From an uncultured Gemmatimonadales bacterium (GTDB lineage Bacteria; Gemmatimonadota; Gemmatimonadetes; Gemmatimonadales; GWC2-71-9), in assembly GCA_963828735.1 (NCBI GenBank), contig CAWHFW010000006.1, positions 32,001-96,000 of the forward strand: 64,000 bases of DNA. The letters are read 5' to 3'. This document shows positions 19,961-35,222 of this stretch, piece after piece; the first letter of the stretch is position 1, and each line of letters opens with the position of its first letter. Below the pieces are notes generated by a model. It saw only the letters and a list, made by a program, of their open reading frames with translations, was not told the origin of the DNA and did not search any database. The translations under genes were made by a program, and so were the position numbers.

Positions 19961-21017
19961 GCTCGTGCTGGGCATCGAGACGTCGTGCGACGAGACCAGC
20001 GCCGCCGTCCTGCGCCGGACCGGCGATCGCGCCGAGATCGCGGGCCTTTCGATCCTCTCGCAGGACGTGCACCGGATCTTTGGCGGCGTGGTGCCGGAGC
20101 TGGCAAGCCGCGCGCACGTGCAGGCGATCGGGTCCGTCGTGGATCGAGCACTGGCCGACGCGGGCATCGGGCTCGGCGAGCTCGATGGGATCACGGTGAC
20201 CGCCGGCCCCGGCCTTGTCGGCGCACTGCTGGTCGGGGTGATGTACGGCAAGACGCTCGCGTTCAGCCTCGACCGGCCCCTGCTGGGGGTGAACCACCTC
20301 GAGGGACACCTCTTCGCCCCGACACTCGAGGATCCCGAGCTCGCGCCCCCCTTCGTCGGGCTACTGGTGAGCGGCGGCCACACCATGCTGCTCGACGTGC
20401 CCGCGTGGGGCGAGTATCGGCTGCTGGGGCAAACGCTCGACGACGCCGCCGGAGAGGCGTTCGACAAGGTGGCCAAGCTCCTCGGCCTCGGCTATCCGGG
20501 CGGCGCCCCGATCGAGCGCCTCGCGCGCGAGGGACACGCCGGCCGGTTCCGGTTTCCCCGGCCGATGCTGCAGGACCTCGACCGCGACGGACCCACTCGC
20601 TACGCTTTCTCGTTCAGCGGCCTCAAGACCGCGGTCCTTCGCGCGGTGCGTGAGGCCGAGCTGTCGCCGCAGGACCGGGCCGACGTGGCCCTGGCGTTCC
20701 AGGATGCGGCCAACGACGTGCTGGTCGCGAAGACGGCGTACGCGGTGGAGGCCCTCGGCTACTCGGCGGCGATGATCGGCGGGGGCGTAGCGTGCAACCG
20801 GGCGCTGGTCACTCGCCTGCGTGACCGGCTGGCGGGACAGGCTCGCGTGAGCGTAGCTTCCCCCCGGCTCAACACCGACAACGCCGCGATGATCGCCGCC
20901 GCCGGGGCATGGCGCCTGGCCCGTGGTGAGCGCAGCGGCTGGGACCTCGAGCCGCGCGACGACCTGCCTCTGCCTGGGCTCGTGGCCCCGATACCCGTTT
21001 CCGGATCCGACGCGTGA
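19953..21017 (+). CDS. tsaD: tRNA t6A37 threonylcarbamoyltransferase TsaD
   Basis: LGIETSCDET, GGVVPELASRAH, VNHLEGH, SGGHT, DDAAGEAFDK, TDNAAMI. Confidence 0.97.
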   Translation: MAELVLGIETSCDETSAAVLRRTGDRAEIAGLSILSQDVHRIFGGVVPELASRAHVQAIGSVVDRALADAGIGLGELDGITVTAGPGLVGALLVGVMYGKTLAFSLDRPLLGVNHLEGHLFAPTLEDPELAPPFVGLLVSGGHTMLLDVPAWGEYRLLGQTLDDAAGEAFDKVAKLLGLGYPGGAPIERLAREGHAGRFRFPRPMLQDLDRDGPTRYAFSFSGLKTAVLRAVREAELSPQDRADVALAFQDAANDVLVAKTAYAVEALGYSAAMIGGGVACNRALVTRLRDRLAGQARVSVASPRLNTDNAAMIAAAGAWRLARGERSGWDLEPRDDLPLPGLVAPIPVSGSDA

Positions 21018-21922
21018 CGATCTATCCCTTCAAGATTCCGCTCCCGTTCTTTCCGCACGAGCTGACCGGCTACGGCCTGATGATGATGGTGGCCTTCCTC
21101 ATGGGAGGCTGGCTGGTGACGCTGGAGCTCCGACGCCGGCGGCTGGCCGAGGACTATTCGGCCGACATGATCGCCGCGGCGGTGATCGGCGGCGTCATCG
21201 GCGCGAAGCTCTGGTATGTCGCCCTCACGCGGGACACGGGGACCCTGTTCGAGCGCGGCGGGTTCGTCTGGTACGGCGGGTTCATCGGCGGCACGATCGC
21301 CGTGATCATCAACGGGTGGCGGCTGCGCGTGCCACTCCGCTGGACGATGCAGCTCGTCGCGCCGGCGCTGGCGGCAGCGTACGCCCTGGGCCGGGTCGGC
21401 TGCTTCCTCGTCAACGACGACTACGGGCGACCCAGCAACCTGCCCTGGGCCGTGAAGTTCCCGCAGGGCCTGCCTCCCTCGACCGCGGGGAACCTCCAGC
21501 ACCTCTTCGGGGTGCCGGTACCCGCAGGCATCGACCCCTCCACGGTGCTGGCCGTCCACCCGACGCAGCTGTACGAGACGGCCATGATGCTGGGCGCGTT
21601 CTTCGTCCTCTGGGCTTGGCGCCTGCGCGCCCGGCCCATCGGGTGGCTGTTCGGCGTGTACCTCGTGTTCGCCGGGTGCGAGCGGTTCCTGATCGAGATT
21701 CTTCGCGCCAAGGACGACCGGTTTCTGGGCCCGTTCACCCTGGCGCAGCTGACATCCGTCATACTGGTGGCGATCGGCGCCTGGGTCATGACCTTGTGGC
21801 ACCACGATCCCGAGCCGGCGCCAGGACCGTACCTGCGCCCCGACAACGACCCCTTGCTGTCAAAGAGCTCGACAGCTGAGGAAGTCGTTGCCACCAAAGG
21901 CGTTACGGGACGGAAGTCCTGA
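21014..21922 (+). CDS. lgt: Prolipoprotein diacylglyceryl transferase
   Basis: YGLMM, GGFVWYGGFIGG, GRVGCFL, HPTQLYE, RFLIEILR. Confidence 0.93.
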   Translation: MTIYPFKIPLPFFPHELTGYGLMMMVAFLMGGWLVTLELRRRRLAEDYSADMIAAAVIGGVIGAKLWYVALTRDTGTLFERGGFVWYGGFIGGTIAVIINGWRLRVPLRWTMQLVAPALAAAYALGRVGCFLVNDDYGRPSNLPWAVKFPQGLPPSTAGNLQHLFGVPVPAGIDPSTVLAVHPTQLYETAMMLGAFFVLWAWRLRARPIGWLFGVYLVFAGCERFLIEILRAKDDRFLGPFTLAQLTSVILVAIGAWVMTLWHHDPEPAPGPYLRPDNDPLLSKSSTAEEVVATKGVTGRKS

Positions 21923-22015
21923 CCGTCGCAAAGGTCGACAAATTCCTGGTGGTAGCGCAAGTAGCAGCATGACGACAAGTCGTTAAATCTCAGTCAATTA
22001 GCTTCGAGCAATGTT

Positions 22016-22030
22016 TGGCACTCGACTTGC
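22016..22030 (+). promoter_or_regulatory. Sigma-54 (-24/-12) promoter
   Basis: TGGCAC-TCGAC-TTGC is an exact match to TGGCAC-N5-TTGC, in an AT-richer intergenic region. Confidence 0.85.
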
Positions 22031-22041
22031 CACTGTATAAG

Positions 22042-22186
22042 ACCGAGAAGTCGAAGACTTCATCGGAAAAGTGGTAGGTCGAAGAAGGGTGGAGCAGGCA
22101 CTTCGGCCTGTCTCCGTAAACTCAGGGGGCGATCTACCACCTCTCTACCGAACGGCCCGTCCATGATGGACGGGCCGTTCGTTTTG
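22042..22186 (+). ncRNA. Candidate sigma54-dependent structured small RNA (~145 nt)
   Basis: Lies between the sigma54 promoter and a terminator, with no credible ORF. Hairpin 1 CCGAGAAGTC-GAA-GACTTCATCGG; long stem GTGGTAGGTCG/CGATCTACCAC enclosing GGAGCAGGC..GCCTGTCTCC; terminal hairpin. Confidence 0.7.
22149..22186 (+). terminator. Rho-independent terminator (possibly bidirectional)
   Basis: Perfect inverted repeat CGAACGGCCCGTCCAT-G-ATGGACGGGCCGTTCG followed by TTTTGT; convergent rraA ends at 22204. Confidence 0.85.
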
Positions 22187-22203
22187 TATCGTCAGCTCGT
22201 GCG

Positions 22204-22689
22204 CTACGGCACGAGCAGATCTCGGTCGGCCACTACGATCCCGTCGCGGTCCGCGTACAAGTGGCAGCCGCGCGTGAAGGTGATCCCCGCGAACGTCACC
22301 GGAAGCCCCTGCTCCCCCGCCCCGGTCCTGCTGCTCTTCCGGGGCACGACGTCGAGCGCCTTGATCCCGATCGCGATGGCCCCGATCTCCCCGGTGTCGC
22401 GAATGCACCCGTGGATCACGATGCCGGTCCAGCCGTTCCGCAGACCCAGCGCGGCCAGGTTGCCGCCGACCAGCGCCGTCCGGCGCGACCCGCCTCCATC
22501 CACCACCAGCACCCGGCCGCGTCCCGGCGACTCCAGCACCTGCCGCACGAGCGCGTTGTCCTCGAGGACCCGCACGGTCTCGACCGCACCCGAAAAAGCG
22601 ACCGAGCCGCCCCAATCACGCAGGAGCGGCTCGGCAACGCGGACCTCCGCGCCGAACTCGTCGCAGAGATCGGCCGTGACCACGGGCAT
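22204..22689 (-). CDS. rraA: RraA family protein (RNase E regulator / HMG aldolase-like)
   Basis: MPVVTADLCD, EDNALVR, VLVVDGGGS, ALVGGNLA, GCIRD, ADRDGIVV. Confidence 0.93.
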   Translation of the reverse strand: MPVVTADLCDEFGAEVRVAEPLLRDWGGSVAFSGAVETVRVLEDNALVRQVLESPGRGRVLVVDGGGSRRTALVGGNLAALGLRNGWTGIVIHGCIRDTGEIGAIAIGIKALDVVPRKSSRTGAGEQGLPVTFAGITFTRGCHLYADRDGIVVADRDLLVP

Positions 22690-24848
22690 CAGCGGGGCGG
22701 TCGCTCGACGGGGACCGTGCGGTCGGCGCACAGGTGCCGGCGCATGCGCTCCACTTCGGCACGCATCTCGGCGAGGTCGGCCTCCATCCGCTCGAGCGAG
22801 CGAAGCAGCTCGACGACGGCGGCTCCGGTAACGGCGTCGGCCGGCACGCGCGCCGGCGGCGCGTGAGGCTCGGGCGTGCCGGCGACCGGTGGCCGCGGCT
22901 CGGGCACCATGACGGTGGTCCTCCCGCGCACCCGCCGCGGCTCGAGGACGAACGTCCATAGCAGCGCCACGATGGCCAGCACGACCAGGACCGCCTGCGC
23001 GCCGAGCGATTCGGCCGTCGGGTAGATGCCGAGCGCGGGGATGCGTGGCGCCCAGGGGAGAATCGTGGTCCCGATCAGATCGCCTTCCTGCAGCTCGGCG
23101 ATGCCCTTGCCGGCGAAGACGAACGCCATGTAGTAGAGGAAGGCGCTCGTGACGGCGAAGAACGGCTTGAGCGGGAGGCGCACCCCGAATCGGTTGATGG
23201 CGATGTAGACGCCGACCAGGATGATCGCGCCGGCGACGATACCGGCCACCACGGGCATCGTGGCGCCCGCTCCCGCCACGAACAGCGCCTTGTAGAACAG
23301 CACCGTCTCGAACCCCTCGCGATAGACCGCGAGGAAGGCAGCGGAGGCGAGGGCCAGGGCGGAGCCGCTGTCGAGCGCGTCCTGCACCTTGCTCTTCACG
23401 AAGCGGTTCCACTTGACCACTTCCATCTTGGACAGCAGCCAGTAGCTGACGTAGAACAGCACGCCGGTCGCGACCACCATCGTGGCGCCCTCGAGCGCCT
23501 CGCGGTGCGCCGGGCTCAGGACGAAGATGGTCTCGAGCGCCACGGCCGTGAGCAGGCTGGCGCCCACCGCCGCCCCGACACCGATATTGATGTCCCGCTT
23601 GCGGTGGCTCGCGCCCATCTTCACGAGGAAGGTCATCAAGGCGCCGACGATCAGGATCGCCTCGAGCCCCTCGCGCAGCATGATGATGAACGACTGGAGG
23701 AACAGGTTGAGCGAGGAATCCCGATCGCCCAGCATGCGCTCGGCGTTTTCGAGTCCGGCGTCGAGCTGCCGCCGCAGCGCCGTCAGCTCCGCCGGCGTCG
23801 CGCCTCCGGCGGCGCGGGTCCGGAGGGAGGCGAAGGCGGTCTCGAGCTCGGTGGCGAGATTCGGACTCTTGGCCCGCACCCCGGGCTCGACCTGCTCGAA
23901 GGTCATGTATGCATCGAACGCGCGCGCGCTCGCCGCGGGGTCCCCCGCGCGGGCAAGGGTGAACGCCGAGTCGAGCTGTCGCCGCACCTGTGCGAAGACC
24001 TCGGCGGTGGCGCCACCCGTGTGATCGGCCTGGAAGGTGCGCACGGCGGCGAGCCGGCCGAGCGCCTCGGGATCGGCGGCGTTGCCGGCGCCGAGGGCCG
24101 CGAGCACCTGGTCGTCCGACATTTTGCCGCTCGTGGCGAAGGCGCGGAGCGACGGCGGCACCTCGCCGCGAGGCGCGGGCAGCCGGAGCACGCTCGCGTA
24201 GAGCGCGGTGGCCCACCGATCTTCGACCGGCAAGCGGCCCTCGAACGCCGGCATCGCCGTGCCGACGGTGCCGATGCTGATGCGGCGGTAGTAGTCGAGC
24301 GGAGAGACGTCCCGAAGGGCCGACCCGTCGGCCAGGTTCGCGGGCGGGGGCGAGAGGCCGGCGGCCTGGGGACCGTCACCGCGGCCCACGGCGCCATGGC
24401 AGCCGGCGCAGTTCGCCTGGTAGACCTCGGCGCCGCGGGAGAGTGCGGGAGTGAGCGACGGCAGCTCATCGAGCGTGACGCCGAGCCGCGTCGTCAGGCC
24501 TTCGCCAAGCGACCGGACCCGCGCGTCGAGCGAATCGGGCGGCGCGGTCTCGGCGACGAGCCGCAGCAACCTGTCGATGTCGCCGGTCGCCGCTTTGGCC
24601 GCGTCCCCCGGCAGCAACGCTGCCGAGCGTCGGGCCTCCTGGAGGAAAAGAGTCGCCTCCTCCACCTCGGCCTTGGCCACGACCCGACCGTCTACGACTC
24701 CGACCCGGTACTCCTGGGCCGCCAGCTGCGCGGTGGCCGCTACCCGACGGGCAACGGGCGCCCGATCCTGAGCCACGCTGGGCTCCTGCTGCTGCGGCAA
24801 CGCCGCCGCTGCCAACAGGATCGGGAGGATGCCATCAATGAGAATCAT
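22689..24848 (-). CDS. Cytochrome c / FTR1 family iron permease fusion (PbrT/EfeU-like)
   Basis: Heme motif CAGCHG..GRGDGP with TAMPAF; two REGxE motifs (LREGLEA, YREGFET); multiple TM helices. Confidence 0.92.
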   Translation of the reverse strand: MILIDGILPILLAAAALPQQQEPSVAQDRAPVARRVAATAQLAAQEYRVGVVDGRVVAKAEVEEATLFLQEARRSAALLPGDAAKAATGDIDRLLRLVAETAPPDSLDARVRSLGEGLTTRLGVTLDELPSLTPALSRGAEVYQANCAGCHGAVGRGDGPQAAGLSPPPANLADGSALRDVSPLDYYRRISIGTVGTAMPAFEGRLPVEDRWATALYASVLRLPAPRGEVPPSLRAFATSGKMSDDQVLAALGAGNAADPEALGRLAAVRTFQADHTGGATAEVFAQVRRQLDSAFTLARAGDPAASARAFDAYMTFEQVEPGVRAKSPNLATELETAFASLRTRAAGGATPAELTALRRQLDAGLENAERMLGDRDSSLNLFLQSFIIMLREGLEAILIVGALMTFLVKMGASHRKRDINIGVGAAVGASLLTAVALETIFVLSPAHREALEGATMVVATGVLFYVSYWLLSKMEVVKWNRFVKSKVQDALDSGSALALASAAFLAVYREGFETVLFYKALFVAGAGATMPVVAGIVAGAIILVGVYIAINRFGVRLPLKPFFAVTSAFLYYMAFVFAGKGIAELQEGDLIGTTILPWAPRIPALGIYPTAESLGAQAVLVVLAIVALLWTFVLEPRRVRGRTTVMVPEPRPPVAGTPEPHAPPARVPADAVTGAAVVELLRSLERMEADLAEMRAEVERMRRHLCADRTVPVERPPR

Positions 24849-24853
24849 TTTCA
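24839..24853. promoter_or_regulatory. Fur-box-like 7-1-7 operator
   Basis: TGAGAAT-C-ATTTTCA versus consensus TGATAAT-N-ATTATCA (2 mismatches); overlaps the FTR1 gene start codon. Confidence 0.75.
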
Positions 24854-25058
24854 GTCGGTCTGCGAAACATGAGCCTAAACTAGAGTCCGCAGGTCGGAAT
24901 TGCTAGAGAGGAGGCCAGCGCACGTGGATATCGCCAGGTGGGACGCCCGCGCGGTCGCGGCGACAGTGTCAACGCAGCGCCCGGCCATCTCCCGGCAGGA
25001 TGGCTGCGGACTTGTTGTTAGGCCTGCGGGCTGCTCCAGCCAAGTCTCTGATTATCGG

Positions 25059-25448
25059 TCACCGGGCCGTTCCAACCACCGCCACGGCCCCCGCCGAGGT
25101 CGCGGAATGGGTGAGCGAGACCTGCACCACCAGTCCACCGTGCTCGGCTGCGAGCTGTTCCGCCAGGCCGTGGAGTCGAATGGCCGGGCGGCCGTCGCCG
25201 TCCCGTAGCACCTCGATATCGCGCCAGCCTATGGCTCGGGCTCCCTGCAGCGATTGCAGCGCCTTGTACACCGCCTCCTTCGCGGCGATCCGCGCGGCTG
25301 CATGGCCGGTGGGGTCGGGACGGGTGGCAAGGTACGCGCGCTCGTCGTCGGTGAAGAACCGTTGCATGGCATAGTCGCCCTTGTTGGCGAACAGGCGGGC
25401 CACGCGTTCCAGGTCCACCAGGTCGATCCCAACGCCGATGACGTTCAC
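25059..25448 (-). CDS. acpS: Holo-ACP synthase
   Basis: IGVGIDLV, FFTDDE, AARIAAKEAVYKAL, VSLTH. Confidence 0.93.
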   Translation of the reverse strand: MNVIGVGIDLVDLERVARLFANKGDYAMQRFFTDDERAYLATRPDPTGHAAARIAAKEAVYKALQSLQGARAIGWRDIEVLRDGDGRPAIRLHGLAEQLAAEHGGLVVQVSLTHSATSAGAVAVVGTAR

Positions 25449-26200
25449 AGCCAGCTCCACACGATGGCGGCAAGGCCCCGTAGCGGGGGCGGCACCGGGA
25501 CGTAGCCGCCGAGCACGAGGCCCAGGTAGACGGCGACCCCGAGCAGGACTGCCGTCATGGTCCACACCGGCCAGCCGGGCCGCCGCCAGTCCCTCACCTG
25601 GGCGATCTCCGCCGCCCAGCGATCCTGCTCGGCGCGAGACGCTGCTTCGAGCGCCAGCCATGCCGCCTCGAGCCGCCGCGCGGCCGCGGCCACGGCGGCC
25701 TGCCAGCTCCGTGCGCCGGCGAGGTCCTTCCCCCGCGCTCCGGCCGTCACGTTCGCCGCCTGTTCCATCGCATCGAGTGCCGCCACGAACGGGCCTCCGC
25801 CGCTTCCGAGCCGGGCCGCGACCGCCCGGGTGTCCTCATCGGTGAGGAGGAGTCGTGCGAGCCGCCGCGGCGGATAGCGCGACTCCTCGGCGGCCACCTG
25901 CAGCCCCGTGTTCGCCTCGGCCGCGATCCGGGCGGCAGCCGCAGCCACCGCCCTCTCCCACAAGCCGAGCCACGCCACCCGCCCGAGCGAGGCAACCGCG
26001 CCATCACGGTCGCCGGCCGCGCCGAACGACCGGCCCGCGCCCGCGAGGTCGAACACCCCGGTGACGAGGTCGGTCCGGATGTCGTCGAAGGCGAGGCGCA
26101 ACGCGCCGCGCGCGACGCCGGTGGGCGCGACCAGCTGCCCAAGGGAAGGCCCGAGCTCGGGCACGACCCAGGCGGATTCGGGGTGAGACGCCATGGTCAC
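25445..26200 (-). CDS. Hypothetical protein with C-terminal TM helix
   Basis: Ala-rich helical protein, C-terminal hydrophobic segment; overlaps both neighbours by 4 nt. Confidence 0.7.
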   Translation of the reverse strand: MTMASHPESAWVVPELGPSLGQLVAPTGVARGALRLAFDDIRTDLVTGVFDLAGAGRSFGAAGDRDGAVASLGRVAWLGLWERAVAAAAARIAAEANTGLQVAAEESRYPPRRLARLLLTDEDTRAVAARLGSGGGPFVAALDAMEQAANVTAGARGKDLAGARSWQAAVAAAARRLEAAWLALEAASRAEQDRWAAEIAQVRDWRRPGWPVWTMTAVLLGVAVYLGLVLGGYVPVPPPLRGLAAIVWSWL

Positions 26201-26766
26201 GGGAAAGCGAGGAGGGCGGTGGTCCCGCTGCGCGCCTCGAAACGGCGCACGAATTCGGTCAGGGAATCCGCGCTGAATGCCTGGCGCGGAAGGCCGGACA
26301 CCTCGATGGCGCGCTCGATCGCGGCGGGCCGGCCCTCGATCTCGACCAGCGGATCCATCCGCGGATAGTACTCCAGGCGGACGGCCGCTCCATCCAGGTC
26401 GAAGATCTCGACGTCACGATCCATGGCGTGCACGACCTCGTACCCGAGGGCCGACAGCAACTCGTGAGGTGACGCGTCGGCAGCGCCGGTCACGGGAAGT
26501 TCCAGTTCGGCCCGCTGCTTGTAGCCCTGGAGCGAGCGACGCGCGGGCCCCTTCCATCCGAGCACCGCCGTGATCCGACCGTCGGGGCGATGGTAGCTCC
26601 GCACGCGCAGCACTTCGTCTCGGCCAGCGAGCTCGCCACCCGGCCGATCGTAGCGCCGGTCGCTCATCCGGCCGCGGAACCGTTCGACGGCCCCGGCGGC
26701 CAGCAAGCCGGCGCGCAGCGAATCGGGATCGGGAATGACGGCCTTGAGCTCCAGCTCGTCAGGCAT
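26197..26766 (-). CDS. CYTH domain protein (class IV adenylate cyclase / triphosphatase-like)
   Basis: N-terminal ELELK (ExExK), LRVR, WKGP, ELE, LVEIE. Confidence 0.85.
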   Translation of the reverse strand: MPDELELKAVIPDPDSLRAGLLAAGAVERFRGRMSDRRYDRPGGELAGRDEVLRVRSYHRPDGRITAVLGWKGPARRSLQGYKQRAELELPVTGAADASPHELLSALGYEVVHAMDRDVEIFDLDGAAVRLEYYPRMDPLVEIEGRPAAIERAIEVSGLPRQAFSADSLTEFVRRFEARSGTTALLAFP

Positions 26767-26787
26767 GCGGTGGCGGCGTCCTCTCGC

Positions 26788-27486
26788 TCACTCGAGGATC
26801 GCGCCCACGACCGCGTCGGTGTTCTGGAGGTCCTCGAAGACGACGTGAGGACCGCACGCCTCGAGATCGGCCACGGAGTAGGACCCGGTCGCCACCGCGA
26901 CCGCGCGCGCCTCGATGCCCGAGCCGCAGGCGACGTCCGCCGGCGTGTCGCCGATGATGACGACCTCGGCGCCGCGCGGGACGCGGCCGAAGATGGCCTC
27001 GGCGCGGCGCGCGGCGATGGGCGGCAGGTCGGACCGGTGGGCCGAGTCGGATCCGTACGCGCCCACGCGGAATCGCTCGGGCGCGATCCCGCCGGAGCGG
27101 AGCTTGAGCGCGGCGCCCTCCGCCAGGTTGCCGGTCAGGAGGCCGAGCACCACGCCGGGCTCGGCCTCGAGCCGTTTCAGCAGTGGATGCACGCCCGGCA
27201 TGATTGTCGTGCGGGCGACGGGGCGCTGGAGCTCACGCGCGAGATACGCGACGTAGCGGTCGCACAGCGCGCGAACCCGGGGCGACTCACGCGTCTCGAC
27301 CTGCCCCGCCGCCTCGAGCATCTCGGTGACGATCTGCGGATCCGTCTTGCCGTCGAACCGGATGGTCTCGAAGGCGGGGACCGGTCCGACTTCCTCGGTC
27401 AGCGCGGCGAGGATCGCCCGGCGGCCGGCGCCCGCGGTGAGCAGGATGGTGCCGTCGATGTCGAACAGGACCAGCTTCCGCGTCAC
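26788..27486 (-). CDS. HAD family hydrolase
   Basis: LFDIDGTIL, GKTD, LLTGN, IIGDTPADV. Confidence 0.92.
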   Translation of the reverse strand: MTRKLVLFDIDGTILLTAGAGRRAILAALTEEVGPVPAFETIRFDGKTDPQIVTEMLEAAGQVETRESPRVRALCDRYVAYLARELQRPVARTTIMPGVHPLLKRLEAEPGVVLGLLTGNLAEGAALKLRSGGIAPERFRVGAYGSDSAHRSDLPPIAARRAEAIFGRVPRGAEVVIIGDTPADVACGSGIEARAVAVATGSYSVADLEACGPHVVFEDLQNTDAVVGAILE

Positions 27487-28265
27487 CGCTCCTCCAGCCG
27501 CCTCACGGCGACGAGCCGCTCACGGAGCGACGCGGCCCGGCTCCCCGGCAGCCAGGGCTCCTGAACCATACCGCCCACGGACAGCGTCGAATGGACCAGG
27601 GTATCCGCCTCGCCCGCGAAGGCGACGTGCGTGACGCGCTCCCGGTCGTCGCGGAAGAACAGCAGGTCGCCGGGACGAATCGCGTCGGCCGACACCGGCG
27701 CTCCGCAGGTGACCTGTTGCGACGAATCGCGGGGCAGCGACACGCCGCGGGCGAGGAAGGTCGTCTGCACGACACCCGAGCAATCGACACCGCACGGCGT
27801 GACCCCGCCCCATTCGTATGGCGCCCCGGCGAAGTACTCGAGCGCCCAGCGCTCGGGCGCCTTGGCACGCGCCGCCGCGACCGCCTCCTCGCCGGGGGTG
27901 ACGACGCCCTCGACGAGTCGAGCGCGCCGGCCATCGGGCAGGCCGATCGTCTCGCCGTTCATGGCCACCCGGGCCCGAAGCGGGAGGCGCACGCGCACGT
28001 CGCCCGCGCGGACCACCGCCCCCTGGCTCCAGCCGCTGGCGTCCTGCTGCCACGCGTCCGCGTCCGCCTCGGGGACTTCCGCGCAGTACCCTACGTGGAC
28101 CCAGCCGACGTACTGGTCCACGTGCGTGCGCACCTTCCGCCACTCGCGGGCCGCCTCGAGAATGGTGGCGACTTCACCGAGGACGAGCTGGCTCGTCTGC
28201 TCGGAGCGGAGGGTCGGCTCCGCGTGGAGGGGAGCGATGGCGGCCCGCGCGATGAGATGAGTCAC
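27483..28265 (-). CDS. SH3 + NlpC/P60 (C40) cell-wall peptidase
   Basis: SEQTSQLVLGE..YVGWV (SH3b-like); PYEWGGVTPCGVDCSG, LPRDSSQQ, PGDLLFF, THV. Confidence 0.92.
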   Translation of the reverse strand: MTHLIARAAIAPLHAEPTLRSEQTSQLVLGEVATILEAAREWRKVRTHVDQYVGWVHVGYCAEVPEADADAWQQDASGWSQGAVVRAGDVRVRLPLRARVAMNGETIGLPDGRRARLVEGVVTPGEEAVAAARAKAPERWALEYFAGAPYEWGGVTPCGVDCSGVVQTTFLARGVSLPRDSSQQVTCGAPVSADAIRPGDLLFFRDDRERVTHVAFAGEADTLVHSTLSVGGMVQEPWLPGSRAASLRERLVAVRRLEER

Positions 28266-28435
28266 GAGCTGGCGGCGTCCTTGGCGGCGCACTCGCGGCA
28301 GAGGGTCACGCCCTGAAAGGTGCAGATGAGGCAGATGAACGTCCCGCAGCGCGTACAGGGATAGCCCTCGGACGCGCGCTCCTCGCGCCCGCAGGCCCGG
28401 CACCCCATGGCGTCGTGCTCCTTGATGTCGGCCAT
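28262..28435 (-). CDS. Small 57-aa protein with four CxxC motifs (double zinc-finger-like)
   Basis: Hand translation: MADIKEHDAMGCRACGREERASEGYPCTRCGTFICLICTFQGVTLCRECAAKDAASS*; GAGG RBS; GTGA overlap with the NlpC gene; not in the ORF track. Confidence 0.8.
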   Translation of the reverse strand: MADIKEHDAMGCRACGREERASEGYPCTRCGTFICLICTFQGVTLCRECAAKDAASS

Positions 28436-28442
28436 GGCGACC

Positions 28443-29789
28443 TCAGGAGGTGAGGTTGTAGCGCTTGATCTTGTTGATCAACGTGGCCCGCGAAATGCCC
28501 AGCTCGATGGCGGCGCGGGTGCGGTTGCCGGTGTGGTGCTTCAGCGTGCGCTCGATGTGCTGGCGCTCGAGGTCCTCGAGGCTGAGCGGCGTGTGACGAC
28601 GATCGCCGATGCCGGGACGCGCCCGGAACTCACCCGGCAGATGCTCGACGCTCACCGCGGCCGACCCACGGCCCAGGATGAGGGCGCGCTCCAGCACGTT
28701 ACGCATCTCGCGCACGTTGCCGGGCCAGCCGTAGGCCAGCAGGCGGTCGAGCACTTCGCTCGAGAGGGTCGGCGGGCCGTCCGGCAGCTCGGCCCGCAGG
28801 TCGTTCATGAGCCGGGTGATGAGGCCGAGTCGGTCCTCGCGCGAGCGATCGCGCACCGCAGGCAGCTGAAGCGGCATGACGCTCAGCCGGTAGTACAGGT
28901 CCTCCCGGAACCGGAGCTCCTCGACCTCGGTCTGCAGCTCCTTGTTCGTGGCGGCGACCAGCCGCACGTCCACGGTGATCTCGCGCGTGCCGCCGAGCCG
29001 GCGGAACGTCTTCGTCTCGAGCACTTTCAGCAGCTTGGGCTGGAGCTCGGGCGCGAGGTCCCCGATCTCGTCGAGAAAGATCGTGCCGTGGTCGGCGATC
29101 TCGAACAGGCCCTGCTTGCGATCCTTGGCGTCCGTGAAGGCGCCCTTCTCGTGCCCGAACAGCTCGGAGTCGAGGAAGGTCGCGTTGAGGCCGGCGCAGT
29201 TGACCTCCACGAACGGCGCGCGGGCGCGCGGGCTCAGGTCGTGGATCATCCGCGCCACCCACCCCTTGCCGGTGCCGCTCTCGCCGGTCAGGAGGACGGT
29301 GGTGCGCTCGCTCTGCGCCAGCAGCGCGACCTGGTGGGCGAAGTCCTGCATGCCCGACGACGACCCGAGTGAATCGAGCCCGTGGTCCGGTGCGCTCTGC
29401 ACCAGGAGCGCCTCGTTGACGCGGCGGAGCCGAGCCTTGTCGGCCACGCGCGCGGTGGCCGCGGCGAGGTGCTCCATGTCGACCGGCTTGGTCAGGAAAT
29501 TCTCGGCGCCGAGCTGCATGGCCCGGACCGCCGTGGCGACGTCGCTCTCGCCGGTCAACAGGATGACCGCCGCGTCCCGTTGGCGCAGGTGCTCGAGCAC
29601 CTCCATACCGTCCATGCCCGGCAACCGAAGGTCCAGGATGACCACTTCCGGCCGCAGTCGGTCGAACGTGGCCAGGCCCGCCTCCCCGCTCAGCTCCCGG
29701 GTAACCTCGTAGCTCAGGCGCTCGAAGTAGTTCCCGATGCTGCGCAGCACGTCGACATCGTCATCGATGAGGAGGACGGATCCGGCCAT
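28443..29789 (-). CDS. Sigma54-dependent (NtrC-family) response regulator
   Basis: Receiver (LIDDD, LDLRLPG), GESGTGK, SELFGHEKGAFTDA, FLDEIG, WPGNVRE, C-terminal Fis HTH (GNRTRAAIELGISRATL). Confidence 0.95.
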   Translation of the reverse strand: MAGSVLLIDDDVDVLRSIGNYFERLSYEVTRELSGEAGLATFDRLRPEVVILDLRLPGMDGMEVLEHLRQRDAAVILLTGESDVATAVRAMQLGAENFLTKPVDMEHLAAATARVADKARLRRVNEALLVQSAPDHGLDSLGSSSGMQDFAHQVALLAQSERTTVLLTGESGTGKGWVARMIHDLSPRARAPFVEVNCAGLNATFLDSELFGHEKGAFTDAKDRKQGLFEIADHGTIFLDEIGDLAPELQPKLLKVLETKTFRRLGGTREITVDVRLVAATNKELQTEVEELRFREDLYYRLSVMPLQLPAVRDRSREDRLGLITRLMNDLRAELPDGPPTLSSEVLDRLLAYGWPGNVREMRNVLERALILGRGSAAVSVEHLPGEFRARPGIGDRRHTPLSLEDLERQHIERTLKHHTGNRTRAAIELGISRATLINKIKRYNLTS

Positions 29790-29806
29790 GGATAGCCCTA
29801 GAGAGA

Positions 29807-29895
29807 AGTCGTGGGTCGTCAGTCAGGTCGCAAGCGTGCGCCACAGGCCGTATGACCAATGACCCACGACTCACGACCCCCGGACCCATGCCCAC
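29807..29895. repeat. Inverted repeat built from heptamer (YGACYMA) units
   Basis: AGTCGTGGGTCGTCAGTCA (29807-25) pairs with TGACCAATGACCCACGACT (29853-71); run TGACCAA TGACCCA CGACTCA CGACCCC. Confidence 0.6.
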
Positions 29896-29928
29896 CAAAA
29901 ACTAGTCACCTCGCGCCCATCCGCCACC

Positions 29929-30828
29929 TCACCCGCCGGGCACCATGATGTTGATGGCCCGGGGGACGACCGTGGCCGTGAACGGCGTCTCTCCGCCGGG
30001 CTCACCATCGAGCTGCACGGGGTGGATCGGGTCGCTCTCGACGCGGACCTCGCGCCCTCGCGCGTACCCGACGTAGGTGTCCAGCCCCTCGACATCCGGC
30101 GCCATGCGCAGAATGTCCCATACCGCGCGCAGGCTCTGCCCGAAGTTGTTGGCTCGGACGACCACGACGTCGAGCAGCCCGTCATCGGGGCGGATGCCGG
30201 ACCCGAGGCGGATGTAGGGAGGAATCACTTCCCCGCAGTTCGCGACCAGCACCATCGCGGCATTGGCATCGTAGGCTACGCCATCGATCGTGATGACGTG
30301 GTCGGTGCTGCGGATCTCGCCGATCAGGCGCAGGGTGGTGGCGACGTATGCGGCCATGCCCCAGCGCCGCTTGTGCTCGCTCAGCGTGCCGGCCATGACC
30401 CGGGCGTCGTACCCCGCGCCGCACGCCACCGCGAAATAGTGGAGACCGTCGGCCCGCTCCATGCGGCCGAGGTCGAAGGGCCTCGGCCGGGCGCTGACGA
30501 GCGCCTGCGCCGCGCGGGCCGGCGCCGAAGGGATGCGGAGGTTGCCCGCGAGCAGGTTCCCCGTCCCGCCTGGGATGACGCCAAGGCTCACTTCCGTCCC
30601 GACCAGGGCGGCCGCGGCCTGCATGGTGGTCCCATCGCCACCGAACACCGCGACGACATCCACCCCCTGCGCCACGCCCTCGGCCGCGAGCAGGCGCGCA
30701 TCGCCCGGCCCGGTCGTGGCGGCCAGGTCGGCCTTCCATCCTGCCGCGAGGATAGTCCGCATGACCGCATCCACCGAGCGGGGCCGCGTGCGCGCCGCCG
30801 CGGGGTTGGTAATGCAGAGGACCCGCAC
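29929..30828 (-). CDS. Diacylglycerol/lipid kinase family (YegS-like)
   Basis: ITNPAA, GGDGT, IPGGTGNLLA, GAGYDA, DDGLLD, QLDGE. Confidence 0.92.
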   Translation of the reverse strand: MRVLCITNPAAARTRPRSVDAVMRTILAAGWKADLAATTGPGDARLLAAEGVAQGVDVVAVFGGDGTTMQAAAALVGTEVSLGVIPGGTGNLLAGNLRIPSAPARAAQALVSARPRPFDLGRMERADGLHYFAVACGAGYDARVMAGTLSEHKRRWGMAAYVATTLRLIGEIRSTDHVITIDGVAYDANAAMVLVANCGEVIPPYIRLGSGIRPDDGLLDVVVVRANNFGQSLRAVWDILRMAPDVEGLDTYVGYARGREVRVESDPIHPVQLDGEPGGETPFTATVVPRAINIMVPGG

Positions 30829-33800
30829 TAGAACTCCCGCTCCCAGAGGATGTCGAGACCGATCTGATACGGGTTGGTGCCGATCCGGGTGGACGTGGCG
30901 AACGTGTTGCACGTCTGGATCGTCGGCTCCACGGAGCTCTGCATCTTCCACTCGCGGTTGAATCGGAACTCGAAACTCGCTCCGAGGTTCTTGTAGCTCA
31001 GCTGGGTGAAATCGGGACAGAAGCCGGCATTGAGTGTCACGAACGTCTTCCTGCCGATCTGCCACCCCGCGGCCAGCTGCGTCAGGGTCCCCCCGCCCGT
31101 ATTCGTCGTGGACACTCCGGGCCGGATCTCGATGAGGTCGATCGGGACGCCGATGTCCTGAATGAGCGCCCGCTCGAGCTCGCTCGAGAGCGCGCTCGAG
31201 AAGTAGGCGAGGCTGGTCTGCACCACCCCGCCCTGCCCGACGAGCGTGGCCTCGTTCGCAGGATAGCCGGTGATGAGGTACGACACGAGGTCCGTCTCGG
31301 AAATCGGCGGCCGGATCGTGCTCGACAGGGTCAGCTTCGGCTGATACAGCGTGCCGGTGATGTTGGCGACGACCGGCACCTCGTCGCCGCGCACGCTCCG
31401 CACGGTGTGGCTTGCCTCGATGTCGAGCCCGGCGTTGAGGTCGTTCGTGTAGGTCACGTTTCCGCGCGCCACCGTGAAGTCGCGGCTCACGGGTCCGAGC
31501 TTGAGCGTGTAGGTACCGCGCGGCGCGTTGAGGGTGCCGATCGGGCTGTAAATGGCGCCAATCTTGCTCAGCCGCACGCGCCCTTCCAGCTGCACGTTCG
31601 CCTCCGCGGAGCGCAGCCAGTCGTCCGAGCCCATCTCCACCCGCAGGTCGTCGATGCGAAGGGAGTCGAGGAAGCGGTTCTGGAACTTGGCGCCGAGGTT
31701 TTCGCGCCGGATCAGCGTCGTGTCCACCAGATCCGCGATCGACGGGTCCTCGAGGTCGAGGATGCGCTTGTTGACCAGGTCGGCGAAATAGAGGACCCCG
31801 CTGTTGGCCAGCAGGCTCCCGGTGAGGGTCGCGCCGAAGACCGGGCCGCGCAGCTCGAGATCGCCGGTGCCGACCAGCGTGAGGAAGCTGCGCACGTCGA
31901 TGGCGCGGAACTGCTCGGCGTGGACGCCCAGGTTGAGCACCGGCCGCGAGAGGTTCTCGAGCCGCACCGCGCCCTCCACCTTGAGCTTTCCGCCGCCGCT
32001 CGTGGCCACCAGGTCGTGAAAACGAACCGAGTCGCCGTCGAGTAACGCGCCCCCGCGCACGCTGCCGAATCGCACGCCGAGGCCGGGGAGGGTCATGCTG
32101 CCGTTCTTGAGCTCCAGCGCTCCCGCGAGGCGCGGTCTGCCCCAGGTCCCCTCGACCTGCACGTCGGCCTTGAGCGTGCCGCCGACATGCGTGACCGCCG
32201 GGGTAATCGCCTCGAGCAGACCGAGCGAGACGCTGTCGGCATGGGCTCGAACCGAGAGGGGACCTTCGATCTGCCGCTTCTCCGCGCCGCGCAACGCGAG
32301 ATCCAGCGGCAGGTGGGCTTCCACCTGGAGCAGGTTCTCGCCGGTGCGCCACAGGTCCAGGTTCGCGTCGAGCCGGCGATCGGCGTAGTTGAGGGCCCCT
32401 TGCACGAATGGCGACTGGAAGTCGCCGAACCGGCCATCGGCCATGCGCACCTGTCCGCGCAGCGTGGGCGCCGCCGCCGTGCCGCCGAGCTGGAGATCGA
32501 CCTCGAGCTCACCGCCGACACCGAGGGTATCGCGCCCCAGCAGGCCGTAGAGGTCGTGCAGATCCAGGGCGAGGAGGTGAACGGTGAGGTCGCCGGACGC
32601 CTTGTCCGGGATCCGGCCGGCGGCCTTGAGCACGCTCGAGCCGTCCACGGCGCGGAGGGTCGTGGGCGTAACCGCCGGGGCGGAATCGCTCAGCGTCACC
32701 ACGATCGGCTCCTCCAGCCGGTATCGCCGCACCGCGAGGGTGGCCAGCAGCGTGTCCACGCCGAGGAGCTGGGCGCCTTCGCGCGCGTACCATCGGCCCG
32801 CCCCGTCGAACCGGGAGGCGGCGCCCAGGGTCGTCCCGCCGCTCCACGCGAGCGAGTCGGTGAACCCGTCGACCGCGCCGCCGAGGGACGTCAGGATCCA
32901 TTGCCCCACCCGCAGCGTGTCGGCGGCGGCGCGCGCCGTGATTCTCGGGCGCCGGCCGCCCAGCCAGTTGAAGCTGCCGGTCATCCTCGGCGATCGGACC
33001 CGCAACCACTCGACGCCGTAGGCCTCCGCGGTGCCCACGGCCTGGAGCGAGTCGAGGCTGCCGGCGAGGTCCACGCGCCCCACCGCCCGCCCGCCGAGCG
33101 GCCGCGACTCGGCGGACGTGTCCCGTGCCTGGCCGGTGACCGCGAGCAGCAGAGAATCGAAGCCGATCAGGCTGTCGGCCGCGAGGTCGAAGCGCATGCG
33201 GCCGTCGTGCGGCGCCGCCCAGCCCAGCGTGCCGGATCCGGAGGCGCGCGCGCCCTGCCATTCGGCGTACGCGGTGTCCACGCGGATCACGCTGTCGTGA
33301 ACGGAGGCCCGGCCGTACAGGCTGTCGATGGTCCACTCGCGCACGCGACTCCGTCCGAGCGCGAGCTCGAGGTCCCCCTCGGGCGCCCGCAGCGTGTCGA
33401 TGCTTCCCGTGGCGTGGAGCCGTCCGGCCAGCGCCGTGGTGAGCTTCCCGCCCGACAGCCGGGCAAGGTCGAGGCGGGTGAAGGCGAGCTGCAGGTCCTC
33501 GGCGCCCCAGTGCGGCGGAAGCAGCGTGACGTATCCCCGCGCGGTCACGTCGCCGAGATCGCCCCGGAGATCCGCGTCGACCGAGAGCCGGCTGAGCTTG
33601 CCCTCGCCCCGGAAGGGCCCGCGCAGGTCGCCCGTGGCCTTGAGCGTTGGGAACGCGCGGCGAATGCCCTCGAACGAGAGCGGCTCGAAGGTGACGTCCG
33701 TCGAGAGCGACAGCGAGTCGAACCGGGTATCGAGATAGAGGGTCCCCGTCGCCGTGCTGGACGGGCGGTCGCCGTCGCGCTGGGTCGCGGTGCCGCGAAA

Positions 33801-35222
33801 GGTCACGTTGTGCAGCGGACCGTCCAGCGTGCCGGCGGCGGCGAGGCGGCCCTCGAGGATCACCGCGGGCGCCAGCCGGCGGACCGAATGGAGGTCCACG
33901 TCGGAGCGCCGCACCACGAAGTTGGTGAACGTGAGGCCGCTGTCGCGCGTCGACCCGGCGATCCCTTCACCCGCGATCCTGGACACCGGCTGCCCCGGCA
34001 CCTTCGCGTCGGCGAAGATCCAGTCGATCGTGATGTCCATCGCATCGAGAAAGCCCGCGCCCGCGATGGTCCCGCTCAGGGTGCCGAAGAATGGCAACGA
34101 ATCGACGTACGCCCGCGCCGCGTCGAGATTCAGATTCTTGAGGGTGACGCGCATGTCGCGGAATCCGAGGCCGCGCTTCCGGTCGGTGATGGCGACGAGG
34201 TCGCCGTCGATCCGCTGGTCGCCGTTCTGGAGATGCAGCTCGCGGATGTCGTAGGCGGTCCGCGCGCCGGTTTCCGACTTGGCGGCGAGCACGCCGCTCC
34301 CGGTCATCGCCGGGAAGTCGGGCGAGACCCAGTGCAGATCGTCCAGGTTCACCTGGGGCGAGGTGACCTGGAAATCGAACAGCGTGGTGTCGTGCGGCCA
34401 GGTGACGGCGCCGCCGCCCGAGAAGCGCGTGTCCGGCAGCGCGCCGCGCGACAGGCCGAAGATCAGGCTGTCGGCGTGCAGCCGCACCCGGCCCACCGCG
34501 TCGGTCAGGGTCACGGCCGGATCGCTCACCCGGGTCGCCAGCGAGTCGATGTCGGCGGTGAACGGCTTGCGGTCGGGCGTGGTGATTCGAAGCCGGGCGA
34601 AGCGCGCATTGAGGTCCGACAGCAGGATCACCCGCCGAAGGCCGTCGTAACCCTCCTCGATGACGCGCCCCGGCTTGGCGCGCTCCGCCGCCAGGGCCGA
34701 GTCGCGCTGGACGTCGGTCCGGAGCGACCGATCGGGATTCCACGGCAACGCGATGCGCAGCGTGCCCCCGGTCACCCGCACCTTGTAGAAATCGATCAGG
34801 GGAGACGCGCCGCCGCCCGGCCCCTTCTTGAGGCCGAGCACTTCCTCGAAGTTCATCCGGCCGTTGCGCAGCTTGATGAGCTGGAGCGTCGGGTGATCGA
34901 GCGTCACGCTGCTCAGCAGGATCTGCTTCGCGAGGAGGTTGGGCAGTCGGTAGGTCACCCGCACGCGCGGAAGATCGGCGAGCAGCGCGCCCGTGGTGTC
35001 GCGCACGACCAGGTCCTGGAGCGTCAGGTCGTAGAGGAACGAGCCCGAGATCGCCCCCACCTTCACCTGCCCGATCACCACGCGGTCGAGCGCGTTGGAG
35101 ACGGTCCGCGCGAGCAGTCTTCGTCCCGGCGGCGTGAGCGTCATCGACGACACCACGCCCAGCACCATCGCGAGGGTGCCGAGGAGGAAGACGAAGAAGA
35201 AGCGCGCGAGTCGCCGGCGCAT
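30828..35222 (-). CDS. tamB: TamB/AsmA-like translocation and assembly module protein
   Basis: 1464 aa, N-terminal TM anchor, beta-taco-like repeats, DUF490-like C-terminus ending WEREF; directly after an Omp85 gene. Confidence 0.85.
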   Translation of the reverse strand: MRRRLARFFFVFLLGTLAMVLGVVSSMTLTPPGRRLLARTVSNALDRVVIGQVKVGAISGSFLYDLTLQDLVVRDTTGALLADLPRVRVTYRLPNLLAKQILLSSVTLDHPTLQLIKLRNGRMNFEEVLGLKKGPGGGASPLIDFYKVRVTGGTLRIALPWNPDRSLRTDVQRDSALAAERAKPGRVIEEGYDGLRRVILLSDLNARFARLRITTPDRKPFTADIDSLATRVSDPAVTLTDAVGRVRLHADSLIFGLSRGALPDTRFSGGGAVTWPHDTTLFDFQVTSPQVNLDDLHWVSPDFPAMTGSGVLAAKSETGARTAYDIRELHLQNGDQRIDGDLVAITDRKRGLGFRDMRVTLKNLNLDAARAYVDSLPFFGTLSGTIAGAGFLDAMDITIDWIFADAKVPGQPVSRIAGEGIAGSTRDSGLTFTNFVVRRSDVDLHSVRRLAPAVILEGRLAAAGTLDGPLHNVTFRGTATQRDGDRPSSTATGTLYLDTRFDSLSLSTDVTFEPLSFEGIRRAFPTLKATGDLRGPFRGEGKLSRLSVDADLRGDLGDVTARGYVTLLPPHWGAEDLQLAFTRLDLARLSGGKLTTALAGRLHATGSIDTLRAPEGDLELALGRSRVREWTIDSLYGRASVHDSVIRVDTAYAEWQGARASGSGTLGWAAPHDGRMRFDLAADSLIGFDSLLLAVTGQARDTSAESRPLGGRAVGRVDLAGSLDSLQAVGTAEAYGVEWLRVRSPRMTGSFNWLGGRRPRITARAAADTLRVGQWILTSLGGAVDGFTDSLAWSGGTTLGAASRFDGAGRWYAREGAQLLGVDTLLATLAVRRYRLEEPIVVTLSDSAPAVTPTTLRAVDGSSVLKAAGRIPDKASGDLTVHLLALDLHDLYGLLGRDTLGVGGELEVDLQLGGTAAAPTLRGQVRMADGRFGDFQSPFVQGALNYADRRLDANLDLWRTGENLLQVEAHLPLDLALRGAEKRQIEGPLSVRAHADSVSLGLLEAITPAVTHVGGTLKADVQVEGTWGRPRLAGALELKNGSMTLPGLGVRFGSVRGGALLDGDSVRFHDLVATSGGGKLKVEGAVRLENLSRPVLNLGVHAEQFRAIDVRSFLTLVGTGDLELRGPVFGATLTGSLLANSGVLYFADLVNKRILDLEDPSIADLVDTTLIRRENLGAKFQNRFLDSLRIDDLRVEMGSDDWLRSAEANVQLEGRVRLSKIGAIYSPIGTLNAPRGTYTLKLGPVSRDFTVARGNVTYTNDLNAGLDIEASHTVRSVRGDEVPVVANITGTLYQPKLTLSSTIRPPISETDLVSYLITGYPANEATLVGQGGVVQTSLAYFSSALSSELERALIQDIGVPIDLIEIRPGVSTTNTGGGTLTQLAAGWQIGRKTFVTLNAGFCPDFTQLSYKNLGASFEFRFNREWKMQSSVEPTIQTCNTFATSTRIGTNPYQIGLDILWEREF

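Follow-up and report, generated by a model that had tools for sequence, protein, structure and literature searches.

A predicted sigma-54-dependent small-RNA gene with a conserved fold and control region, between lgt and a convergent FTR1 permease gene in soil Gemmatimonadaceae

The DNA considered here is a stretch of 64,000 nucleotides (the window) from an uncultured Gemmatimonadales bacterium (GenBank assembly GCA_963828735.1, contig CAWHFW010000006.1, positions 32,001 to 96,000 of the forward strand), and our subject within it is a short intergenic element that we interpret as a small-RNA gene. Upstream of this element runs a series of + strand genes, namely rpe and the genes for AhpC/TSA, YbbR, TsaD and Lgt, the last of them (lgt) at 21014-21922; downstream of it, all genes from 22204 to 35222 lie on the minus strand and code for an RraA-like protein, an FTR1 permease fused to cytochrome c, two products of unknown type, a HAD protein, an NlpC/P60 protein, an enhancer-binding protein with receiver (REC), AAA+ and helix-turn-helix (HTH) domains, and TamB. 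Between the two runs, the promoter TGGCAC-TCGAC-TTGC at 22016-22030 faces a 145-nt region, 22042-22186, that is closed by a terminator. As no + strand gene follows the terminator, this promoter cannot serve a protein gene. Taking the comparative evidence as a whole, we hold it to be highly probable that 22042-22186 is a sigma-54-dependent stand-alone small-RNA gene, a degree of confidence that concerns the identity of the gene and not its mode of action. The features of the locus are the following:

21858-21874, no strand: distal enhancer dyad TGTC-N9-GACA, TGTCAAAGAGCTCGACA, within the final codons of lgt, at -158 relative to the T of TGGCA
21924-21940, no strand: proximal enhancer dyad CGTC-N9-GACA, CGTCGCAAAGGTCGACA, at -92 relative to the T of TGGCA and 66 bp from the distal dyad
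21977-21999, no strand: positioned inverted repeat AAGTCGTT-N7-AGTCAATT, constantly at -39 relative to the -24 element, overlapping an integration host factor (IHF)-like consensus
22016-22030, + strand: putative sigma-54 promoter, -24 element TGGCAC and -12 element TTGC, conserved in homologs
22042-22186, + strand: predicted small RNA of about 145 nt, its 5' end placed from the promoter geometry
22043-22066, + strand: 5' hairpin, conserved in pairing and variable in sequence
22071-22140, + strand: central domain, made up of an 11-bp stem, a purine internal loop, a 4-bp helix and an apical hairpin
22071-22081 with 22130-22140, + strand: long stem of the central domain, 11 bp
22082-22086 (AAGAA) and 22124-22129 (AGGGGG), + strand: purine internal loop
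22087-22090 with 22120-22123, + strand: short inner helix, 4 bp
22091-22115, + strand: apical hairpin
22141-22148, + strand: pyrimidine-rich single-stranded linker CUCUCUAC, following CCAC, semi-conserved and resembling an anti-Shine-Dalgarno sequence
22149-22185, + strand: intrinsic terminator found by the terminator scan, 15 bp with a 3-nt loop, then UUUU
28443-29789, minus strand: candidate activator with REC, sigma-54 AAA+ and Fis-type HTH domains and the contact loop GAFTDA

The element is confined to a subset of one family. A BLASTN search with 21960-22200 recovered matches at E < 1e-20 in 32 of 36 genomes of the same genus (one of those without a match, G003, is flagged as unpublished) and in none of 24 genomes of two sister families. 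A covariance model built on 28 sequences of the genus (R1) placed the RNA in 41 of 151 genomes and 24 of 78 genera of the family, with 36 matches at E < 1e-9 and five weak ones. With a second model (R2) it was found in 23 of 61 genomes of family f1, one of these matches (G239) coming from a genome flagged as unpublished, and in 0 of 62 and 0 of 27 genomes of the two sister families f2 and f3 (89 genomes). The exact pattern of two invariant loop strands, described below, occurs at no fewer than 119 loci in genome_contigs, and among the matches listed all 80 of 80 titles are those of metagenome-assembled genomes (MAGs) of Gemmatimonadota, Gemmatimonadales or Gemmatimonadaceae. Both BLASTN and the covariance model find the gene in single copy in the source genome. 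The search for homologs that the preliminary description of this DNA had called for places the RNA across a subset of the Gemmatimonadaceae.

The genomic setting is retained along with the element: lgt lies upstream on the same strand at 55 of 57 homologous loci and the FTR1 gene lies convergently downstream at 53 of 57, some of the misses being contig ends. In five nearly complete genomes of the family that lack the RNA, tsaD and lgt stand together in all five and lgt directly faces the FTR1 gene in four, and a -24/-12 motif is absent from the 900 nt after lgt in these genomes. In these genomes the element is thus truly missing and has not been overlooked by the search. Judged from these sequences, what lies between lgt and the convergent FTR1/cytochrome c permease gene in a subset of soil Gemmatimonadaceae is a conserved structured RNA. 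As a separate observation, the lgt-FTR1 spacer of one RNA-less genome (locus L099 of G098) has tandem-repeat runs of GAGAGGT/AAGAGGT and their complement around a hairpin.

The preliminary description had recognized a sigma-54 promoter at 22016-22030 and had asked whether homologs keep it. The motif is present there, and YGGCAY-N5-BTGC precedes the RNA in 55 of the 57 homologs, at a nearly fixed distance from it and within surrounding sequence that cannot be aligned. The strict motif occurs four times in the 4.78-Mb genome as against six for a reversed control and is on its own not above chance; the case therefore rests on conservation among relatives. The genome has one rpoN gene (one match to PF04552) and 14 full-length enhancer-binding proteins (PF00158), so that a conserved GG/GC pair at fixed spacing, the cognate sigma factor and its activators, and the upstream dyads considered below are all found together. 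Both exceptions among the 57 homologs belong to genus g77, in which TTGACA-N17-TAnnnT stands at the right distance before the primary copy in five of five genomes (L050, L058, L086, L087 and L088) and the -24/-12 motif is absent. This sigma-70-type promoter independently marks the same 5' end. That one promoter type has taken the place of another at a single position is strong evidence that the RNA forms a transcription unit of its own, beginning immediately upstream of the first hairpin. One genome of this genus (G248) has three copies of the RNA, the extra copies (L092 and L097) being preceded by TTGCGA or TTGCAT with TAGCTT or TAGTTT.

Further upstream, the two 17-bp motifs that had been pointed out at 21858-21874 and 21924-21940 are present and recur at fixed distances in homologs. 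We counted them with the pattern YGTM-N9-KACR at the 54 loci where the promoter is present and the upstream sequence is long enough; equally wide windows placed another 300 nt upstream served as the control (n = 52). A proximal dyad at -79 to -97 is found at 37 of 54 loci and a distal one at -146 to -168 at 29; both are present at 24 and at least one at 42, as against none in the 52 control windows. The dyads, of the form YGTC-N9-GACR, precede the -24 element by about 92 and 158 bp, and the distance from one to the other is 66-67 bp. Among the 105 sigma-54-like sites of the source genome, the RNA promoter is the sole one with two dyads; single dyads accompany four of the 105 (4.2 expected by chance) and there is no second two-dyad target. 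A search of the 151 family genomes for the promoter combined with two dyads returned three matches, all of them at the RNA locus, the pattern being too strict to reveal other targets. Apart from this, a site in genome G000 (contig C5, minus strand, 673983), outside the window, has TGGCATGGCCTTTGC with one dyad, CGTCGAGATGGCCGACG, 146 nt upstream, followed by GAGGAG and ATG; this might be another sigma-54 promoter equipped with such a dyad, although a single dyad is within chance expectation.

The IHF-like patch that the preliminary description placed between the dyads and the promoter fared less evenly: the window offers only a loose fit to the IHF consensus, and what is conserved at that place is a positioned element. 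Conservation peaks at -40 to -17 from TGGCA, where an A/T-rich inverted repeat with the family consensus AAGTCRTT-N7-AAYGACTT is found with no more than four mismatches in 16 positions at 20 of 54 loci, compared with one of 52 control windows. A perfect WATCAANNNNTTR falls at this place in some homologs, and the repeat is conserved across genera, including genera that have lost the dyads. From its sequence, the repeat at 21977-21999 may be a site of DNA bending by IHF or a separate site for a dimeric or second regulator. In genus g26 the sigma-54-type promoter is kept and the dyads are replaced by a palindrome, TGCCGGAAC-N9-GTTCCGGCA, about 100 nt upstream, which suggests that the enhancer was exchanged for one serving another activator; genus g46 has related CCGGAA/TTCCGG repeats.

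The predicted transcript folds far better than expected of its composition. The minimum-energy fold of 22042-22186 has -78.7 kcal/mol, compared with -48.0 +/- 4.5 for dinucleotide shuffles (z = -6.9; none of 200 shuffles as good), and its helices are those already put forward in the preliminary description (22043-22066, 22071-22081 with 22130-22140, and 22091-22115, with the loops AAGAA and AGGGGG). The minus strand also folds well (z = -8.8), and the energy is thus uninformative as to strand. Of the 16-bp terminator hairpin claimed earlier, the hairpin with its T tract stands, at 22149-22181 followed by TTTTG, and was reported by the terminator scan on the + strand only; its stem has 15 pairs with a 3-nt loop and not 16.

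Covariation, a point raised in the preliminary description, was assessed by pair counts on a covariance-model alignment of 57 sequences with 44 modelled pairs and 500 shuffles. Standard pairs occupy 98.0% of 2496 cells, as against 88.5 +/- 0.3 in shuffled alignments, and compensatory changes on both sides occur in 30 of the 44 pairs, as against 15.6 +/- 1.9; neither value is reached by any of the 500 shuffles. When partners were slid by one to three columns as a control, 31-48% of cells remained paired and 6-13 pairs were changed on both sides. By helix, pairs changed on both sides number six of six in the 5' hairpin (in which 91.7% of cells are paired), six of 11 in the long stem, none of four in the inner helix, five of nine in the apical hairpin and 13 of 14 in the terminator; the short inner helix is constant save for G-U to A-U changes. 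An independent alignment of the genus set with MAFFT and RNAalifold yields the same helices minus the 5' hairpin, with nine of 38 pairs compensatory. G-U pairs are retained at two positions in 46 and 50 of the 57 sequences, and since these would be A-C on the other strand, the transcribed strand must be the + strand. No variation is seen across the 57 homologs in the unpaired loop strands CGAAGAAGRG and CUCAGGGGGCG, and the 70-nt central domain as a whole, its helices included, is nearly invariant within the genus, with the 5' hairpin and the terminator drifting freely. The linker 3' of the long stem, unpaired in the minimum-energy fold, is C/U-rich throughout the 57 homologs and yet variable in sequence (CUCU, CUCAC, CUCCC).

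These same alignments bear on whether the region codes for a small protein, either a 31-aa frame with a GTG start (22071-22166) or a 34-aa frame on the minus strand, open reading frames (ORFs) of both lengths being indeed present. The preliminary description had seen no credible ORF here, and had taken conservation of a frame instead of base pairing as what would speak against an RNA. We found the structure kept and the 31-aa frame not kept: it is shifted by 1-nt indels in many homologs, and its stop is absent within the RNA in 47 of them, at codon 31 in five, codon 32 in two, codon 15 in two and codon 26 in one. Moreover, the substitutions are those of compensating helix pairs and not of third codon positions, and neither small ORF has a Pfam match. 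We consequently reject a small protein, which appears even less probable than the operon alternative weighed below.

In public sequence data, 24 runs contain part of the stretch, and we compared four RNA libraries from four studies. Their contigs, at a depth of 2-5, contain copies of the core from relatives and match conserved sequence only, for 56-117 nt with 95-99% likeness (three contigs are below 90%). Several observations weigh against the interpretation as a discrete small-RNA gene or blunt the evidence for it. Some of these contigs overrun the terminator by 150-175 nt (X9 and X11) and one (X15) takes in 81 nt of upstream sequence with the promoter; neither transcript ends nor the strand can be read from them, carry-over of DNA could account for them, and they thus speak neither for expression nor for boundaries. 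The terminators of several homologs have poor T tracts, and the alignment used for the pair counts had been fitted to the model, which favours structure. If the hairpins were merely the 3' untranslated region and terminator of a tsaD-lgt operon, with a -24/-12 motif arisen by chance and no separate RNA, then the position of the element after lgt on the same strand, the motif count that does not exceed the reversed control, and the inclusion of the promoter region in one RNA-library contig would find a ready explanation. Such an account leaves unexplained why the motif holds its fixed distance to the first hairpin in 55 of 57 homologs when the flanks cannot be aligned, why a sigma-70-type promoter takes the same place in one genus, why the dyads stand at fixed distances, and why lgt faces the FTR1 gene without any such element in four of the five RNA-less genomes examined; we regard it as very improbable. 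A separate promoter and terminator, a conserved structure and the lack of a conserved ORF are what the region presents, and the stand-alone regulatory RNA of the preliminary description is upheld by the conjunction of the promoter, the dyads with their empty control windows, the compensatory pairs, the unkept reading frame and the lack of a database match reported next.

The preliminary description had not recognized the RNA as a known family and had proposed a scan of Rfam. Rfam 15 gave no match at gathering thresholds in the whole 64-kb window, and for 21700-22400 at E values up to 10 only three chance-level matches (E = 7.8-9.6), far below the cut-offs; the GlmY_tke1 and GlmZ_SraJ models yielded no match even at E values up to 10. 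The RNA family is new to databases, Rfam being without a model for it, and our literature search found no published description of a small RNA of Gemmatimonadota.

By analogy, the nearest described system is that of GlmY/GlmZ with GlrR, whose control logic is alike. The GlmY/GlmZ genes of Enterobacteriaceae are preceded by a sigma-54 promoter and, more than 100 bp upstream, by three TGTCN10GACA sites for GlrR (QseF), with IHF sites as well, and certain genera have sigma-70 promoters in place of the sigma-54 one (PMC3045617); sigma-54 regulons in general are the subject of another source (PMC3162934). The likeness extends to a stand-alone RNA gene with a sigma-54 promoter, repeated TGTC...GACA dyads more than 100 bp upstream, IHF-type sites (here an IHF-like element) between them and the promoter, a swap to sigma-70 in some genera, and a regulator of the REC-AAA+-HTH type, here the candidate binder of the dyads. 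The dyads here differ in having an N9 and not an N10 spacer and in numbering two and not three. The architecture of the GlmY/GlmZ RNAs, too, consists of stem-loops, a single-stranded stretch and a terminator. Unlike GlrR, which is encoded directly downstream, the candidate regulator lies 6 kb off with no kinase gene adjacent; further, there is no Rfam model match, no RapZ gene (no PF03668 match in a genome 97.5% complete), no notable complementarity to glmS, and the phylum is another. In the last respect, five RNA segments were compared with -110 to +90 of glmS and gave z values of +1.8 to -1.9 against 3171 other 5' regions. Membership in the GlmY/GlmZ family was accordingly rejected, on the model mismatch, the N9 dyads, the missing RapZ, the lack of glmS pairing and the non-adjacent regulator.

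Qrr1-5 with LuxO in Vibrio and CrcZ/CrcY with CbrB in Pseudomonas are sigma-54-dependent small RNAs that form the main output of one response-regulator-type enhancer-binding protein and that some lineages have in multiple copies or in tandem; Qrr RNAs need Hfq, and CrcZ acts by binding protein. In Myxococcus xanthus, Pxr is encoded by a sigma-54-type small-RNA gene, has three stem-loops, and lies downstream of nla19, which codes for an NtrC-like response regulator. On grounds of analogy these pairs (Qrr/LuxO, CrcZ/CbrB and Pxr/Nla19) are further members of the same kind as the RNA described here. In contrast to Qrr and CrcZ, our RNA has no Rfam match and other enhancer sequences; Hfq, needed by Qrr, was not found in this genome (PF17209; 97.5% complete, as above), and the repeated A-rich motifs of CrcZ are absent. 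With Pxr it shares the sigma-54-type gene, the three stem-loops, a link (here a putative one) to an NtrC-like regulator and a lineage outside the proteobacterial models, whereas Pxr adjoins its regulator gene and there is no sequence or model match between the two.

A plausible course of events at the locus is as follows. A phosphorylated enhancer-binding protein of the response-regulator type would bind the two dyads; the DNA would bend at the intervening inverted-repeat element; the activator would then open the complex of the sigma-54 holoenzyme, so that transcription would start near 22042; and the resulting small RNA would act in trans.

As to which protein might be the activator, the preliminary description had suggested the NtrC-type regulator at 28443-29789. 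This suggestion stands in part: it is the best of the 14 candidates of the genome and the enhancer follows the state of its loop, and the assignment as such is only partly supported. Orthologs were found in 114 of the 151 family genomes, and every one of the 41 RNA-bearing genomes is among them; three of the 114 are flagged as unpublished and were left out of further analysis, and the loop alignment comprised 100 orthologs and six others. Among 37 RNA-bearing genomes the sigma-54 contact loop is intact in 27, destroyed in nine (genera g26, g46, g67 and g77) and reads GAFADA in one. Of the RNA-positive genomes for which both loci could be compared, 20 of the 23 whose loop is intact (GAFTDA/GAYTDA) have a dyad, as against none of the seven in which it is destroyed or altered. 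In a table of reciprocal best hits for the 14 regulators, only the 28443-29789 protein is intact in the two enhancer-bearing genomes tested (G202 and G130), loop-dead in G186, G267 and G077, and without a hit in G227. On these comparisons we consider it the likeliest activator of the RNA gene, with a confidence that stops just short of even.

Nearly as probable, in our estimate, is that a different enhancer-binding protein binds the dyads and that the nearness of the 28443-29789 gene reflects only conserved gene order. The following points weigh against the assignment or speak for this second possibility. The regulator lies 5-8 kb from lgt whether the RNA is present or not, the arrangement being unchanged in RNA-less genomes (G077 and G098 among them), and nearness alone is therefore not evidence. 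Of 64 RNA-less genomes, moreover, 31 have an intact regulator, so that its state does not predict the RNA and it either has other targets or is not the activator. In the ortholog tree, with a minimum of six changes, loop loss maps mainly to one large clade; the association of loop and enhancer is therefore essentially one evolutionary event. GAFTDA is moreover a variant of the canonical GAFTGA, a loop only putatively functional judging by its sequence; no kinase gene lies beside the regulator, the ORFs at 29790-30830 being without a Pfam match; and 13 enhancer-binding proteins scanned against NCBIfam all fall below the equivalog cut-offs, so that none can be named and orthology to GlrR, NtrC and the like is unassignable. 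In genera g26, g46 and g67, the sigma-54-type promoters would have to work with another activator, the neighbouring regulator there being without its contact loop. Against a different protein speak the tracking of the enhancer by the loop state of this one regulator (20 of 23 versus 0 of seven) and the occurrence of the five other regulators with reciprocal best hits in both enhancer-bearing genomes in sigma-70-type or RNA-less genomes as well. Two side observations concern the enhancer-binding proteins of G000: the regulators at C2:836249-837613 and C5:1221036-1222604 also have GAFTDA, a variant common in the lineage, and at 1086081-1086582 of contig C5, outside the window, a single enhancer-binding protein gene is represented by two adjoining pieces of the sigma-54 interaction domain, which may be a frameshift or a split gene.

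Turning to what the RNA might do, the tandem forms of genus g26 are instructive. There, one sigma-54-type promoter is followed by a first core without a terminator, a short hairpin, and a second core with a terminator (L093/L062 in G146; L094/L090 in G280); since the first copy is without a terminator, the central domain is doubled in one transcript. Because the 70-nt domain is near-constant, helices included, and is carried twice in one g26 transcript, we see its likeliest role as that of a binding platform for a protein or another partner, after the manner of GlmY-like or CrcZ-like decoys, and would put this somewhat below an even chance. The pattern of the domains fits a modular binding platform somewhat better than it does a simple seed-pairing RNA.

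The competing possibility, which we rate slightly lower, is a classical base-pairing small RNA whose pyrimidine linker, CCACCUCUCUAC, would pair with ribosome-binding sites and block translation, the central domain serving as a scaffold or stability element. It draws on the resemblance of the linker to the anti-Shine-Dalgarno end of 16S rRNA, its single-stranded state and C/U-richness noted above, and the retention of a C/U-rich linker by each domain of the tandem forms. The linker also sits just 5' of the terminator, as does the pairing site of GlmZ. Its sequence varies whereas the strands of the internal loop are invariant; among 3171 crude 5' regions its best matches go no further than z = -4.3, as any strong Shine-Dalgarno sequence would give; and Hfq, as said, was not found. 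More generally, no partner was found, the genome having neither Hfq nor RapZ, and five RNA segments set against the 3171 crude 5' regions of one genome gave no credible target; the 13 neighbouring genes (lgt, the FTR1 gene and the regulator among them) and glmS have complementarities of z = +1.9 to -2.5. The top matches of the target scan (z = -5 to -7) were dismissed, lying in variable parts of the RNA or inside genes.

Drawing these strands together in a broader and frankly speculative proposal, which we think unlikely to hold in all its parts, a GlmY-like circuit would have evolved independently of that of Enterobacteria: an orphan GAFTDA activator, encoded among lgt, TamB and NlpC/P60, would have the RNA as its principal output, the purine-loop domain would be a modular protein-binding platform, and the control region would have been rewired at least twice within the family. 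The two rewirings are the palindrome of g26 and the sigma-70 promoter of g77, and both fall in the clade whose regulator lost the sigma-54 contact loop. Gemmatimonadota are an abundant and rarely cultured soil phylum, the regulatory RNAs of which are essentially undescribed. Against this background the RNA family is well delimited, and its control region, with a promoter, two enhancer sites and a putative bending element, can be read from the sequence; the natural promoter and enhancer swaps inside one family make the locus a compact system for the rewiring of sigma-54 enhancer circuits. It is likewise of use for asking about the function of GAFTDA and the sigma-54 targets of the phylum, and the covariance models built here can serve to annotate the RNA in MAGs.

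The convergent side of the locus differs between genera in one detail. Only in the genus of the window does an RraA-like gene (of the aldolase/RNase E regulator family; 22204-22686, minus strand) lie between the RNA and the FTR1 gene; in the other genera this gene is absent from between them and the RNA faces the FTR1 gene directly.

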